64,000 nucleotides of DNA from Escherichia coli (GTDB taxonomy: Bacteria > Pseudomonadota > Gammaproteobacteria > Enterobacterales > Enterobacteriaceae): assembly GCF_003790525.1 (NCBI RefSeq), contig NZ_CP033635.1; one strand, 5' to 3'. Position 1 is the stretch's first letter; each line of letters begins with the position of its first letter. The notes beneath the pieces are model-generated. The model ran no database searches. It saw nothing but the letters and a program-made list of their open reading frames with translations, and was not told the origin of the DNA. Both the position numbers and the translations under genes were made by a program. This document shows positions 3,001 to 11,979 of the stretch, piece by piece.

Positions 3001-3955
3001 CCCGACTCCCGATCCAACGCCGACACCCGTCCCGGAGAAACGCATCACGCCTTCTACGGCAGCCGTACTCAATATGGCAGCAACATTACCGTTGGTCTTT
3101 GATGCTGAGCTAAACAGTATTCGCGAGCGGTTGAACATAATGAAAGCGAGTCCACACAACAATAATGTCTGGGGGACGACGTATAACACCCGTAATAATG
3201 TCACCACCGATGCGGGTGCCGGGTTTGAGCAGACGCTGACCGGAATGACGGTGGGGATCGATAGCCGTAATGATATTCCTGAGGGGATTGCGACGCTGGG
3301 CGCTTTTATGGGTTATTCCCATTCACATATCGGTTTTGATCGTGGAGGACATGGCAGTGTGGGCAGTTATTCTCTGGGGGGCTATGCCAGCTGGGAACAT
3401 GAAAGTGGTTTCTATCTGGACGGTATCGTGAAGCTGAACCGCTTTGAAAGTAACGTAGCCGGTAAAATGAGCAGCGGTGGAGCCGCCAACGGCAGTTATC
3501 GCAGCAACGGGCTGGGCGGTCACATTGAAACCGGGATGCGATTTACCGATGGTAACTGGAACCTGACGCCGTATGCATCGTTAACGGGGTTCACCGCTGA
3601 TAACCCCGAATATCATTTATCCAATGGCATGGAATCGAAATCAGTCGATACCCGCAGTATATATCGTGAACTGGGCGCAACGCTGAGTTACAACATGCGT
3701 CTGGGGAACGGCATGGAAGTTGAGCCGTGGCTGAAGGCGGCTGTGCGCAAAGAATTTGTCGATGATAACCGGGTGAAAGTGAATAATGACGGTAATTTTG
3801 TCAATGATTTGTCGGGCAGACGTGGAATATACCAGGCAGGTATTAAAGCCTCATTCAGCAGTTCGTTAAGCGGGAATCTCGGGGTGGGGTATAGCCATGG
3901 TGCCGGTGTGGAATCCCCGTGGAACGCAGTGGCTGGTGTGAACTGGTCGTTCTGA
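2..3955 (+). CDS. AIDA-I-type autotransporter adhesin, 5'-partial (reading frame open to the window edge)
   Basis: Frame is open from position 2 with no stop, so the gene starts upstream of the window. Repetitive Gly/Thr/Asn-rich beta-helix-like passenger, Pro-rich PNPDPK linker, C-terminal beta-barrel domain ending in ...NWSF. By position next to ssrA it may be the ypjA ortholog, but that is inferred from context only. Confidence 0.8.
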   Translation, partial: TTTIKNGGEQRVYESRALDTTIEGGTQSLNSNSTAKNTQIYSGGTQIVDYTSTSDVIEIYSGGVLDVRGGMATNVTQHDGAALKVTTYDLTVSGTNSEGAFSIHNNVADNVLLENGGHLDVYGSATRTIIKDKGTMSVLTNAKADATRIDNGGVMDVAGNATNTIINGGTQNINNHGIATGTNINSGTQNIKSGGKADTTNISSGSRQIVEKDGTATGSNISAGGSLIVYTGGIAHGVNQETGSALVANTGAGTDIEGYNKLSRFTIIGGEANYVVLENTGELTVVAKTSAKNTTIDAGGKLIVQKEAKTDSTRLNNGGVLEVQDGGEAKHVEQQSGGALIASTTSGTLIEGTNSYGDAFYIRNSEAKNVVLENAGSLTVVTGSRAVDTIINANGKMDVYGKDVGTVLNSAGTQTIYASATSEKANIKGGKQTVYGLATEANIESGEQIVDGGSTDKTHIKGGTQTVQNYGKAINTDIVSGLQQIMANGTAEGSIINGGSQVVNEGGLAENSVLNDGGTLDVREKGSATGIQQSSQGALVATTRATRVTGTRADGVAFSIEQGAANNILLTNGGVLTVESDTSSAKTQVNAGGREIVKTKATATGTTLTGGEQIVEGVANETTINDGGIQTVSANGEAVKTTINEGGTLTVNDNGKATDIIQNSGAALQTSTANGIEISGTHQYGTFSIAGNLATNALLENGGNLLVLAGTEARDSTVGKGGAMQNLGQDSATKVNSGGQYTLGRSKDEFQALARAEDLQVAGGTAIVYAGTLADASVSGATGSLSLMTPRDNVTPVKLEGAIRITDSATLTIGNGVDTTLTDLTAASRGSVWLNSNNSCAGTSNCEYRVNSLLLNDGDVYLSAQTAAPATTNGIYNTLTTSELSGSGNFYLHTNVAGSRGDQLVVNNNATGNFKIFVQDTGVSPQSDDAMTLVKTGGGDASFTLGNTGGFVDLGTYEYVLKSDGNSNWNLTNDVKPNPDPNPNPKPDPKPDPKPDPKPDPTPDPTPTPVPEKRITPSTAAVLNMAATLPLVFDAELNSIRERLNIMKASPHNNNVWGTTYNTRNNVTTDAGAGFEQTLTGMTVGIDSRNDIPEGIATLGAFMGYSHSHIGFDRGGHGSVGSYSLGGYASWEHESGFYLDGIVKLNRFESNVAGKMSSGGAANGSYRSNGLGGHIETGMRFTDGNWNLTPYASLTGFTADNPEYHLSNGMESKSVDTRSIYRELGATLSYNMRLGNGMEVEPWLKAAVRKEFVDDNRVKVNNDGNFVNDLSGRRGIYQAGIKASFSSSLSGNLGVGYSHGAGVESPWNAVAGVNWSF

Positions 3956-4115
3956 CCATCAACGAAAAAGCCCACATCTGTGGGCTTTCATATCACCAGG
4001 AGCCGCGGCTCCTTTGCGTATCCTTTTTTGTCTCCTCACCGTCTGGTCGGTGTCCTGCTGAGACTGCTAACTTCCTGTTTTTATTGGTGTTGTCCTTACA
4101 CCGTCCAATCATGAT

Positions 4116-4478
4116 TGGTGGAGCTGGCGGGAGTTGAACCCGCGTCCGAAATTCCTACATCCTCGGTACTACATGCTTAGTCAGTCTTTACATTCGCTTG
4201 CCAGCTGCGGACGGACACGCCACTAACAAACTAGCCTGATTAAGTTTTAACGCTTCAACCCCAGGCAGGGCTTCCACGCGATCTCTTTTGGGTTTGACCT
4301 CTCTTGATCCCCGTCCTAAGAGCGGAGGCTAGGGAGAGAGGGCTCTAAGCAGGTTATTAAGCTGCTAAAGCGTAGTTTTCGTCGTTTGCGACTATTTTTT
4401 GCGGCTTTTTACGAGGCCAACCGCCCCTCGGCATGCACCTTGGGTTTCGCAAATCCCGTCGAATCCAGAATCAGCCCC
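4116..4478 (-). ncRNA. ssrA: tmRNA (SsrA), 363 nt
   Basis: Reverse complement reads GGGGCTGATTCTGGATTCGACGGG ... CCAGCTCCACCA and contains the tag reading frame encoding ANDENYALAA; sits downstream of smpB as expected. Confidence 0.95.
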
Positions 4479-4692
4479 AATGTGTGACGGTAAGTATACC
4501 AGATTCATGAGTGCCATGACCAGCCTCAATGGCGTTATCATTAAAGATTTAGCACCCATGTAGCCTGATTTTTATTCGATTAAGCAATGGGATGGCAACA
4601 TTTGTGTCGGAAGTGATAGCCAATAAGATGTTCATTCGCGCCGCCGGAGAGGGAGGCGCGGTGAGGAACTGGTCAATAATTGCAGTGCAGGT

Positions 4693-5175
4693 TTAACGGT
4701 GGGCGTTTTTCATGATACGCGCTTTATCCACCTGCCATTCGCGTTCTTTGATATCTGAACGTTTATCATGCTGTTTCTTACCTTTGGCGACGCCGATTTT
4801 TACTTTGCACCAGGCATTTTTCCAGTACAGGGAGAGCGCCACTACGGTATAGCCTTCTCGATTGACGCGACCGTACAATGAGTCCAGTTCGCGCTGGTTG
4901 AGAAGTAACTTGCGGGTACGGGTAGGATCGCACACCACATGCGTGGAGGCCACAGCCATTGGCGTGATGTTAGCGCCAAACAGAAATGCCTCTCCGTCAC
5001 GCAGAAGGACGTAGCTGTCGCTGATATTGGCTTTTCCTGCGCGCAGGGATTTAACCTCCCAGCCTTGCAGGGCAAGTCCCGCCTCGAACTCTTCTTCGAT
5101 AAAGTATTCGTGACGGGCGCGCTTGTTAAGCGCGATGGTCGCTGAACCAGGTTTATGTGCTTTTTTCTTCGTCAT
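4693..5175 (-). CDS. smpB: SsrA-binding protein SmpB
   Basis: 160-aa [51 protein letters not shown]... recognised as SmpB; adjacent to ssrA. Confidence 0.95.
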
Positions 5176-5306
5176 AAGCGTCGTGAATCATCGGTAATCT
5201 GAAATCGAAAACACCCCATATCAATCCTGCGGGGGACAAGGCTCTATCTTAGCATGAACCCGATGTTACCCAGCGCCGGGATAGCGTTTTTTTTACAGCA
5301 GGATAA

Positions 5307-5783
5307 ATGATATTATTTGTTGGATTTTTGTTGATGGAAATTGTTATGCCTCAGATTAGCCGGACCGCACTGGTACCCTACAGCGCGGAGCAAATGTATC
5401 AGTTAGTGAATGACGTTCAGTCTTATCCTCAGTTTTTGCCGGGTTGTACCGGAAGTCGGATTCTGGAGTCCACTCCTGGGCAGATGACTGCGGCGGTAAA
5501 TGTCTCTAAGGCTGGGATCAGCAAAACGTTTACTACCCGCAACCAGTTGACCAGTAACCAAAGTATTCTTATGAATCTGGTGGATGGGCCGTTCAAGAAA
5601 TTGATCGGTGGATGGAAGTTTACGCCGCTGAGCCAGGAGGCGTGTCGTATCGAGTTTCATCTCGACTTTGAGTTTACCAATAAGTTGATTGAACTCGCCT
5701 TTGGTCGCGTGTTTAAAGAGCTGGCGGCTAATATGGTCCAGGCTTTTACGGTTCGTGCGAAAGAGGTTTACAGTGCCAGGTAA
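5307..5783 (+). CDS. ratA: ribosome association toxin RatA (SRPBCC family)
   Basis: 158-aa ORF divergent from smpB; conserved ratA-ratB pair in this position. Confidence 0.8.
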
Positions 5784-9329: not shown

Positions 9330-9953
<624 letters not shown>

Positions 9954-9960
9954 ATATCTG

Positions 9961-9990
9961 ATGGCCGACGCGAAGTCGGCCATTTTTTTA
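9961..9990. terminator. intrinsic terminator shared by grpE and the convergent acidic ORF
   Basis: ATGGCCGACGCGAAGTCGGCCAT hairpin followed by TTTTTTT on the plus strand; the stop codon of the minus-strand ORF lies in the T-run. Confidence 0.75.
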
Positions 9991-10629
9991 GCTTAAAAAA
10001 TCCTGTACTTCCAGCCACGGCGTGTTGAAATCATCTATTTTTTTATATTCGTTCATTGGCAGAACGACCACGTTATAGGTGTCAGATCCTTCATTCAGAT
10101 CAAAAATCTGAAAGCCCCTTTTATTGAGTTCGGTTTGGATGCGTTCAAAGATTTCGTCAAGGTAACGGTCTCCGGCTTCACAGACATCGGAGATTTCATC
10201 CTCTTGGGTTATTTCGACAAGAAGACTCCTTAATTCCTCAGAAGCTGTCAGGTTTTTTGTGAGCTCATAAAAGCGATCTGCAGCAAAATTAGCCAGCTCA
10301 CCTTCTTCATCTTCACCTTTCCAGTCAACGAGTTGAATTAGTCCTTCACCGCGCAGAACCTGTAAAAATGCCTGCGCCAGGTCATGATTTCCGAGATCGC
10401 CTCCACTGCAATCGAGAACGTCTTGTAATCCATATTCGTCTTCATCTTCGTCTTCAAAGATTTCAGGTTGCGTCGAAAGTTGAGAGAAAATAGTGGGCCA
10501 TAAGGTTGGGGTGTGCTGTAAAAAAACGCTGGCGACGACGTTGAGATCGTCTGCAAAATCCTTATCCCATTCAATTAAATAATCTTCTGACATAACATCA
10601 ATATCCTTTCCGAATGTTTGAAAAGACAT
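9988..10629 (-). CDS. hypothetical highly acidic cytoplasmic protein (213 aa), unrecognised, probably accessory
   Basis: Intact ORF; 51 Asp+Glu versus about 13 Lys+Arg; EDEDEDE run; no signal peptide or TM segment; no motif I recognise. Not part of the K-12 grpE-yfjD arrangement as I recall it. Start may be 10629 (no Shine-Dalgarno) or the Met at 10593 (AAGGA about 10 nt upstream). Confidence 0.6.
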   Translation of the reverse strand: MSFQTFGKDIDVMSEDYLIEWDKDFADDLNVVASVFLQHTPTLWPTIFSQLSTQPEIFEDEDEDEYGLQDVLDCSGGDLGNHDLAQAFLQVLRGEGLIQLVDWKGEDEEGELANFAADRFYELTKNLTASEELRSLLVEITQEDEISDVCEAGDRYLDEIFERIQTELNKRGFQIFDLNEGSDTYNVVVLPMNEYKKIDDFNTPWLEVQDFLS

Positions 10630-10682
10630 TATTACATTGCTAAGTAAATGACAGGAATTGATGGAATCCTAAAAGACGGCGA

Positions 10683-10709
10683 TAAAAAAAAAGGCGAACC
10701 GGAGTTCGC
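10683..10709 (-). terminator. intrinsic terminator downstream of yfjD
   Basis: Minus strand reads GGCGAACTCCGGTTCGCC hairpin followed by a T-run (A9 on the plus strand). Confidence 0.7.
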
Positions 10710-10716
10710 CATTGCG

Positions 10717-11979
10717 TTACTCCGCCACGCTCTCGCGTAGCGGTTTCACAGGAAAAACTTTTACCTGCTTAATCATATTGTCCTGAACGTCGAGAATATC
10801 AATATCGTACTCGCCAATACGCACGCGGGTGCCTGCTACCGGGATCTCCTCCAGCGCTTCCAGAATGACGCCGTTAACAGTACGAGCATCATCTTCCGGT
10901 AGATGCCAGTTAAAGGCTTTGTTAATTTCTCGCACGTTGGCAGTGCCATCAATAATCACCGAACCGTCGTTTTGTGGCGTAACTTCTTCGGCAAGTGTTG
11001 GCGACATCGACGTGGTGAAATCGCCGACAATCTCTTCCAGAATATCTTCAACCGTCACCAGCCCCTGAATGTCTCCATACTCGTTGACGACCAGGCCGAC
11101 TTTCTTTTTGTTGCGCTGAAACTTCACCAACTGCGTGCTGAGCGGCGTACCTTCCGGGACAAAATAGATCTCGTCCGCGGCGCGTAGCATGGTTTCTTTG
11201 GTGAACTCTTTTTTCTCCGACATGAGTCGCCAGGCTTCACGCACACGCAGCATACTGATGGCGTCGTCCAGCGAATCACGGTAGAGCACGATGCGCCCGT
11301 GAGGTGAGTGGGAGAGTTGGCGCAGAATCGATTTCCAGTCATCGTTGATATCAATACCGATAATTTCACTGCGCGGCACCATGATGTCATCAACGGTCAT
11401 TTTTTCCAGATCGAGCACCGACAGCAGCATATCCTGATTGCGACGGGAAATTTGTGAGCGCGATTCGTGCACGATAGTGCGCAACTCTTCTTTGCTCAAA
11501 GAGCCGCTAACCACGATATCGGTTTTGATACCCATCATGCGCATCAGCATACGGGTGATAGCATTCAGCAACCAGACCAGCGGCATCATCAAAATTTGCA
11601 GCGGAGCCAGCAGAAAACTACTCGGATAAGCGACTTTTTCCGGGTACAGCGCGGCAATGGTTTTCGGCAATACCTCAGCAAAAACCAGCACGACAAAAGT
11701 CAGCACACCAGTCGCAATTGCCACGCCCGCATCGCCGTACAAACGCATCCCAACAATAGTGCCTAGCGCGGAGGCAAGAATATTGACCAGGTTATTGCCG
11801 ATTAACACCAGGCTAATCAGGCGGTCTGGCTTACGCAGCAATTTTTCGACGCGTTTGGCCGAGCGATTACCCTGTTTCGCCATATGTCGCAGACGATAGC
11901 GGTTGAGGGTCATCATTCCGGTTTCGGACCCGGAAAAATAGGCTGAAATGACCACCATGATGATCAGAATAATGATCAA
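10717..11979 (-). CDS. yfjD: CNNM/CorC-family inner membrane protein (DUF21, CBS pair, CorC-HlyC domains)
   Basis: 420-aa ORF with N-terminal TM helices and C-terminal transporter-associated domain; frame stays open upstream, so the true start is uncertain. Confidence 0.85.
   Translation of the reverse strand: MIIILIIMVVISAYFSGSETGMMTLNRYRLRHMAKQGNRSAKRVEKLLRKPDRLISLVLIGNNLVNILASALGTIVGMRLYGDAGVAIATGVLTFVVLVFAEVLPKTIAALYPEKVAYPSSFLLAPLQILMMPLVWLLNAITRMLMRMMGIKTDIVVSGSLSKEELRTIVHESRSQISRRNQDMLLSVLDLEKMTVDDIMVPRSEIIGIDINDDWKSILRQLSHSPHGRIVLYRDSLDDAISMLRVREAWRLMSEKKEFTKETMLRAADEIYFVPEGTPLSTQLVKFQRNKKKVGLVVNEYGDIQGLVTVEDILEEIVGDFTTSMSPTLAEEVTPQNDGSVIIDGTANVREINKAFNWHLPEDDARTVNGVILEALEEIPVAGTRVRIGEYDIDILDVQDNMIKQVKVFPVKPLRESVAE

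Follow-up and report, generated by a model that had tools for sequence, protein, structure and literature searches.

An acidic DUF6630 gene in a conserved slot between yfjD and grpE of Escherichia coli, and its tentative reading as a stand-alone polyanionic immunity protein

Anti-restriction genes of the Ocr/ArdA type travel on the DNA that they protect. Among immunity proteins, the PoNi proteins (DUF1910/DUF1911) have been shown experimentally to bind PoNe DNase toxins and may also occur as orphans (Jana et al. 2019, PMC6688995), and about 90% of the PoNe genes have a DUF1911 gene immediately downstream of them (PMC6688995). Here, we describe how the gene of a very acidic protein, located between grpE and yfjD in 64,000 nucleotides of the Escherichia coli chromosome (NCBI RefSeq assembly GCF_003790525.1, contig NZ_CP033635.1; this whole stretch is “the window” in what follows), compares with these systems. 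The gene belongs to the DUF6630 family and lies in the open reading frame (ORF) 9988..10629 of the minus strand, which translates into 213 residues. From the sequence comparisons, we consider it near-certain that this is a genuine and selectively maintained gene, and equally near-certain that its slot is conserved across enterobacterial genera while the occupant of the slot is often lost, evolves fast, and is exchanged. As for its function, we propose, with a probability of roughly 0.3, that the protein works as a polyanionic binder of a basic partner, with a toxin as the most likely target.

That the ORF is a real gene is shown by its pairwise ratios of nonsynonymous to synonymous substitution (dN/dS) of 0.04–0.13 against five orthologues, which denote purifying selection, together with the conservation of its Shine-Dalgarno sequence and start codon; in the orthologues, the length, start codon, Shine-Dalgarno sequence, and C-terminus are all kept down to 31% identity. 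The yfjD-grpE slot holds a DUF6630 gene in E. coli, E. whittamii, Salmonella, Klebsiella spallanzanii, and Superficieibacter electus; in Entomohabitans, the gene comes directly after yfjD, and on a contig assembled from sequencing runs (L006) it lies beside grpE. The identities to the window protein are 91% in E. whittamii, 61% in Salmonella, 46% in K. spallanzanii, 67% in S. electus, 40% in Entomohabitans, and 33% in L006, and across the same genomes GrpE, YfjD, and NadK are 88–100% identical; GrpE by itself is 88–93% identical where the DUF6630 protein has dropped to 61%, 46%, and 33%. In the comparison with Salmonella, dN is 0.26 for the DUF6630 gene vs. 0.02–0.04 for yfjD, nadK, and grpE, and overall the gene evolves 5–10 times faster than its neighbours. 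Its GC content is 42–45% in every genus (42% here), against 50–55% in the flanks, and, being low in every genus, it is a stable property of the gene and not a sign of recent arrival.

Within E. coli, the gene is carried by 303 of 5426 complete genomes (about 6%), always in a single copy and always on the chromosome, with carriers as different as the F-group strain SMS-3-5 and the enterohaemorrhagic strain O103:H2 12009; the interval 9954-10716 is 100% identical in SMS-3-5 and in about 20 other complete genomes. The empty-site strains, 94% of the species, have in place of this cassette 54 bp of unrelated spacer, whose terminator also differs, and their grpE is one codon longer, ending in KAKA* instead of the KAK* of the window. 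Against the empty-site strain ATCC 8739, the window is about 98% identical elsewhere in the 20 kb compared, vs. 93.2% over the final 330 bp of grpE (window 9615-9942) and 92.4% over the final 250 bp of yfjD (window 10711-10960). The cassette has been exchanged between lineages and even between genera, and this raised divergence in the ends of both flanking genes suggests homologous recombination in those gene ends as the likely route. In Salmonella, there are two allele classes at one site, with 59–73% (locus L010) and 92–97% (locus L028) nucleotide identity to the window cassette, the gene being at 5001-5606 in each locus, and with flanks that are 80–85% identical to the window in both alleles. 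The E. coli-like Salmonella allele is therefore closer to the window than its own flanks are, which implies that the cassette moved between Escherichia and Salmonella. Alleles that are old and deeply diverged coexist at this site. The cassette showed no flanking direct or inverted repeats, no integrase, and no Rfam family above threshold.

Some copies of the gene are damaged. The E. coli-like Salmonella allele is often truncated to 185 residues, truncated forms of 118–187 residues are present in E. coli and Salmonella protein clusters, and in the Shiga toxin-producing E. coli strain 2013C-3181 (L003 689-1293) the gene is annotated as a frameshifted pseudogene, so that some lineages are still losing it by decay. 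A low-coverage contig of a Streptomyces cahuitamycinicus assembly (NZ_POUC01000996.1; L017, 413 bp) also codes for a fragment with 93% identity to the protein of E. coli, and it is almost certainly an enterobacterial contamination of that assembly.

The first-pass annotation, which was made from the DNA sequence alone, had taken the ORF for an orphan. This was wrong, given that the protein matches Pfam DUF6630 (PF20335) with an i-Evalue of 1.3e-10 (residues 54-199 of the 213-residue ORF against positions 25-145 of the 158 in the model) and has relatives in many phyla. At least 1000 contigs carry the identical sequence, named either “DUF6630 family protein” or “cytoplasmic protein”; 56 family members at E <= 1e-3 came out of a profile search that covered 1.84 billion cluster representatives exhaustively; and Foldseek places members of DUF6630 among the Bacteroidota, Firmicutes, Actinobacteria, and Proteobacteria. 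Both the gene and the family are thus catalogued already and do not make a new kind of element. In the alignments of 26 and of 40 diverse members, the residues D90, W91, G93, E94, and D171 are invariant or nearly so. Scans of the window protein with the NCBIfam, PADLOC, and PHROGs models gave nothing significant, two profile searches of a 5.8-billion-protein set found PF20335-only architectures with no fusion to a known Pfam domain, and a full-text literature search turned up no paper on DUF6630/PF20335, STM2680, or WP_001287889. The peptide-pattern scans of genomes and metagenomes gave few loci, as this method needs conserved 7-10-mers.

The distant members have architectures of their own. 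A zinc-ribbon type, with a CxxC...CxxC tail and with most of the N-terminal helical bundle missing, is seen in P0066, P0068, P0075, P0083, P0090, and P0091, and also at the loci L020 5917-6531 and L033 5899-6549. Another group (P0062, P0073, P0074, P0081, and P0084) has a C-terminal domain of about 80 residues that Pfam does not recognise, and the 801-residue protein P0059 has two DUF6630 copies behind a proline-rich linker.

The features of the locus, in window coordinates, are the following:

9954..10716, no strand: whole replaceable cassette, from the grpE stop to the yfjD stop, delimited by the presence/absence and identity profiles.
9960..9990, plus strand: hairpin terminator of grpE from the terminator scan, with the hairpin at 9960-9984, directly past the stop codon of the convergent DUF6630 gene.
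9988..10593, minus strand: coding sequence of the DUF6630 family protein, 201 residues plus stop, equal to RefSeq WP_001287889.1; the SMS-3-5 locus is 100% identical.
10594..10629, minus strand: 12-codon in-frame extension of the maximal ORF; its ATG at 10629 is not conserved, and it overlaps the putative -10 element.
10604..10611, minus strand: Shine-Dalgarno sequence GGAAAGGA, 10 nt 5' of the ATG at 10593, from the upstream alignment.
10628..10636, minus strand: putative extended -10 element TGTAATAAT, at an aligned position common to four genera.
10684..10710, minus strand: intrinsic terminator of yfjD, GGCGAACTCCGGTTCGCC plus a T9 run, from the terminator scan; it separates yfjD from the DUF6630 gene.

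The second ATG of the maximal ORF (window 10593) is the start in RefSeq and in all the orthologues, whose length is about 201 residues. In the upstream alignment, the ATG at 10629 is out of frame and then followed by a stop in E. whittamii, and it is missing in Salmonella and Superficieibacter; the Shine-Dalgarno sequence in front of the second ATG is GGAAAGGA in E. coli, Superficieibacter, and Salmonella, and AGAAAGGA in E. whittamii. The 12-codon extension is probably a 5' untranslated leader and not coding, and with translation starting at the second ATG, the protein has 201 residues, 49 acidic and 12 basic, with a net charge of -37. Upstream of the gene, an element of the form TG-N-(A/T)ATAA(T/A), with an ATAA core that is invariant in the four genera, could be its extended -10 promoter; a simple sigma-70 scan returned no promoter with two hexamers. 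Further upstream of the putative -10, at window 10652-10670, there is a semi-conserved inverted repeat of the type GGAAT-N6/7-ATTCC (AGGATTCCATCAATTCCT in E. coli), found in four genera (aligned in L015, L016, and L010), which may be an operator for some regulator. The order of genes in this part of the E. coli chromosome is ssrA-smpB-ratA-yfjF-bamE-recN-nadK-grpE-[ORF]-yfjD-ypjD-ffh-rpsP-rimM-trmD. Here, grpE (9363..9953, plus strand) converges with the DUF6630 gene, and yfjD/corB begins at 10717 on the minus strand, in the same orientation as the DUF6630 gene, which sits downstream of it.

The most striking property of the product is its charge, and on this point the earlier description of its composition held in full. 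The 213-codon ORF has 51 Asp/Glu (26 Asp and 25 Glu) against 13 Lys/Arg (7 Lys and 6 Arg), includes the EDEDEDE run, and gives a calculated isoelectric point of about 4.05; it has no hydrophobic segment (the highest 19-residue Kyte-Doolittle mean is 0.93), and as to catalytic or nucleotide-binding motifs, Walker A, GxGxxG, HExxH, and CxxC are all absent. With a net charge of -0.178 per residue, it is an extreme outlier among the 57 window ORFs of at least 150 residues (next lowest -0.077, mean 0.001), and hence well outside the local background. Each of 12 orthologues with 31–91% identity has 44–52 acidic and 12–21 basic residues, and in their alignment 9 columns are acidic in all the sequences, 20 in at least 80% of them, and 99 in at least one. 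All the enterobacterial members have net charges from -24 to -41, and the distant DUF6630 proteins range from +4 to -33. In the enterobacterial clade, to judge from this alignment, the total negative charge is conserved more than the positions that carry it, which would be expected of an electrostatic binder or mimic and not of an enzyme.

The structure prediction suggested by the first-pass annotation gave a confident model, and the resemblance to DNA mimics that it had in view was not seen in the Pfam and PDB comparisons. The AlphaFold2 model, made with 15 orthologues, has a mean predicted local distance difference test (pLDDT) score of 87.5 and a predicted template modelling (pTM) score of 0.85, and it consists of a compact helical bundle and a four-stranded sheet with about 49 carboxylates. 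Along the chain, it predicts a five-helix bundle at the N-terminus (residues 11-82), a strand (86-90) bearing the D-W-x-G-E motif, four more helices, a β-hairpin (161-167/172-179) with the invariant Asp171, and a final strand. A PDB sequence search with the protein gave no match below E = 0.06, and the confidently predicted fold is without a solved relative.

The two-repeat architecture that had been read from a pair of similar motifs did not survive comparison of the two halves of the protein. The motifs are DVLDCSGGD at residues 70-78 and DVCEAGD at residues 148-154 (213-residue numbering). The local alignment of the N- and C-terminal halves scores 27, vs. 28 +/- 5 for shuffled sequences, and hhalign of the halves gives P = 0.08–0.14 and a probability below 1%, though it does place the C-x-x-G-D motifs in register. 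Furthermore, neither Cys nor Val is kept at its place in the motifs (the first Cys is replaced by Asp/Glu, and the second by Trp, Ser, or Tyr), and only the Gly of each motif persists in the orthologues (G65 and G141). In the model, each motif forms a Gly-Asp turn that opens a long helix (69-82 and 143-158) leading into a β-strand (86-90 and 161-167). The two motifs are a structural parallel and not a repeat, most simply a helix-capping motif that is used twice.

These data are in keeping with a protein that is acidic and non-catalytic and would bind a basic partner. In the mechanism that we propose, the DUF6630 protein would have no catalytic function and would act as a polyanion in one-to-one amounts, covering the surface with which a basic protein binds nucleic acid. 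As its target, an incoming nuclease-type toxin delivered by competitors would be the most likely, and the DUF6630 protein would then be an immunity or decoy protein that stands alone as an orphan; a DNA- or RNA-binding protein of the cell itself would be a less likely target. Diversity of the targets would explain the fast, allele-rich evolution of the gene as well as its presence/absence polymorphism. We prefer the orphan immunity reading because it accounts best for how diverse the alleles are and how often the gene is lost, for the weak links to PoNi and to type VI secretion systems (T6SS), and for the absence from mobile elements; moreover, small size, cytoplasmic location, patchy distribution, and rapid diversification are features shared with immunity proteins. 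A bolder version, which we consider improbable, makes of DUF6630 a so far unrecognised class of polyanionic proteins that stand alone, confer immunity or act as decoys, and have a fold distantly related to PoNi. Enterobacteria would keep such a gene as a recombining presence/absence cassette in a single fixed place of the chromosome, yfjD-grpE, with deeply diverged alleles that pass from one genus to another, and the locus would in effect be a single-gene “immunity locus” on which the nuclease toxins of competitors exert diversifying or balancing selection.

Several observations weigh against the immunity reading and explain the low probability that we give it. No toxin gene adjoins the window copy or any of its syntenic orthologues, the neighbours being grpE and yfjD in Salmonella, Klebsiella, and Superficieibacter as well, although an orphan immunity gene would likewise stand without an adjacent toxin. 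None of the Pfam immunity families matches the protein, and neither does any model of NCBIfam, PADLOC, or PHROGs. The residues invariant across the family, D90, E94, and D171, could equally be where a metal is bound or where catalysis takes place. A C-terminal zinc ribbon, which to our knowledge is not typical of immunity proteins, is present in many of the distant DUF6630 proteins. No characterised family other than PoNi shows a link, and this one is weak, consisting of one structural match, to some part of a 430-residue protein, in a one-in-ten sample of the AlphaFold database clusters; in sequence, the Pfam models PoNi_N and PoNi_C do not match the DUF6630 protein. In addition, the PoNe toxins that Jana et al. 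list include none from E. coli or Salmonella (PMC6688995).

The genomic contexts of the relatives add to this side of the balance, as no recurrent partner was found in about 12 contexts of DUF6630 homologues. In Pfam batch scans of 34 neighbouring ORFs, none of those immediately next to a DUF6630 gene had a known domain of a toxin or immunity protein; the matches were DUF4123, DUF4258, KfrA_N, and sigma/anti-sigma types, none of them recurrent. The gene lies between recR and htpG (distant homologue P0056), after an opp ABC operon, between folA-lysE and hcp-vgrG-DcrB-Rhs, at the end of a vgrG-DUF4123-small-ORF array beside an IS3 element, beside thiamine and SMR genes, after an ECF sigma/anti-sigma pair, and next to a DUF4258 gene, and, by eye, next to an IS200/IS605 TnpB-like ORF and near a TraG/VirD4-like conjugation gene in Chitinophaga. 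Only two of the approximately 12 contexts are adjacent to T6SS genes, neither with an identified toxin domain directly upstream, and a related Providencia locus at the same folA-lysE site has a multicopper oxidase and no T6SS genes; this adjacency is suggestive but not compelling. One metagenomic array (L005 340-5968) shows a vgrG C-terminus, a DUF4123 adaptor gene, and an apparently fragmented effector region with an ORF containing an E-L-K motif, then a gene pair (about 290 residues in total) in two tandem copies (3264-4206 and 4221-5182; apparently frameshifted), and after these a 182-residue ORF, the DUF6630 gene, and an IS3 transposase. The small ORFs of L005 had no Pfam match.

The main rival to a toxin target is a host target, where the protein would regulate, by electrostatic mimicry, a resident basic protein that binds nucleic acid, for instance a nucleoid-associated protein, the surface of RNA polymerase or of a sigma factor, or a factor of the ribosome or of RNA processing; we consider this less probable than a toxin target. 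The position of the gene brings up another explanation, namely a divalent-cation (Mg2+/Ca2+) buffer or an accessory of the neighbouring CorB/YfjD Mg2+ transporter, with a surface rich in carboxylates that would bind the metal. The DUF6630 gene does lie directly downstream of yfjD, in the same orientation, in every enterobacterial genome examined, with a gap of only 61 bp in K. spallanzanii, and the invariant acidic residues D90, E94, and D171 of the family would suit a cation ligand; however, in E. coli a strong terminator separates the two genes, most E. coli have yfjD without the DUF6630 gene, and DUF6630 genes elsewhere are not beside CNNM/CorC genes, all of which makes this role improbable. 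On the other flank, grpE suggests an acidic co-factor linked to heat shock or chaperones, in line with the chaperone-like option of the first-pass annotation, whose only basis turned out to be the coincidence of two heat-shock neighbours, grpE at the window copy and htpG at the distant homologue P0056. At the latter locus (L007 6001-6558; 28% identity), the DUF6630 gene, which has 350 bp of AT-rich sequence upstream of it, sits between recR and htpG, and the sigma-32 promoter of htpG, CTTGAAA-N14-CCCCATCT (L007 6680-6710), is just downstream of the DUF6630 gene. At neither locus was there a sign of shared regulation: being convergent, grpE and the DUF6630 gene are not co-transcribed, and no sigma-32 consensus was seen by eye upstream of the window copy or of the L007 copy. 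The other contexts of the family have no chaperone genes, and we regard a chaperone-linked role as very improbable.

Just as improbable, in our estimate, is a decaying remnant without a present function. The gene is missing from 94% of E. coli, and frameshifted or truncated copies are common, as a remnant would have it, but the dN/dS values given above and the preservation of length, start codon, Shine-Dalgarno sequence, and total charge across at least five genera speak for selection. The remaining alternative is a DNA-mimic anti-restriction protein of the Ocr/ArdA kind, which would shield DNA entering the cell by binding to type I restriction enzymes. Its charge density of -0.18 per residue resembles that of known DNA mimics, but the idea is largely refuted by the distribution of the gene, and we assign it only a slight chance. 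A tblastn search with the DUF6630 protein gave 0 matches in 50,697 phage records, and two peptide-pattern scans of the 2.9 million IMG/VR contigs, covering conserved motifs only, found no enterobacterial or distant relatives. Among plasmids, just two records match, both large and non-mobilizable and both from Salmonella. The one inspected, NZ_CP110658.1 (labelled IncHI2A pS2122_1, 272 kb), carries at 138709-145311 (L029) the chromosomal block ffh-ypjD-yfjD-DUF6630-grpE-nadK-recN, and it is either a chimeric assembly or a plasmid with captured chromosomal DNA; the other is NZ_LN868944.1, of 728 kb. Since Ocr/ArdA-type genes accompany the DNA that they protect, this distribution of the DUF6630 gene over mobile elements is strong evidence against such a role. 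Neither the Ocr nor the ArdA family appeared in the Pfam scan even at E <= 10, and comparison with solved DNA mimics brought out no structural similarity. The Ocr/ArdA-like suggestion of the first-pass annotation is therefore disfavoured, having no Pfam or PDB similarity, no phage copies, and an inspected plasmid copy that lies within a chromosomal block.

If the immunity reading is true, a function would be gained for a family that is widespread in Proteobacteria, Bacteroidota, Firmicutes, and Actinobacteria and has neither literature nor a solved structure. It would also mean that genes of interbacterial defence can be kept as exchangeable single-gene cassettes in core housekeeping neighbourhoods and not just in islands. 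Whatever the function of the gene, its locus offers a clean case from nature of a long-lived presence/absence polymorphism, with alleles shared between E. coli and Salmonella.

In summary, the comparison with known systems is as follows. ArdA and Ocr have in common with the DUF6630 protein an extreme negative charge density, a small size, and no enzymatic motifs, whereas the DUF6630 gene is found neither on phages nor on plasmids outside the chromosomal block, and its sequence and fold are unlike theirs. With barstar and the Im proteins of the E colicins it would share the proposed mode of action, that is, an acidic surface plugging a basic nucleic-acid-binding cleft, although their fold is unrelated to the DUF6630 model and the DUF6630 gene has no adjacent toxin. 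Unlike PoNi, which is usually encoded next to its toxin, the DUF6630 gene stands alone between housekeeping genes, with no PoNe or other toxin gene upstream. Within its own family, the window protein has the family fold of the AlphaFold entries, the DWxGE motif, and the invariant Asp in the β2/β3 hairpin; the enterobacterial clade to which it belongs lacks the zinc ribbon or C-terminal domain of many distant members, adds an extra N-terminal helical bundle, and is far more acidic than many of them.

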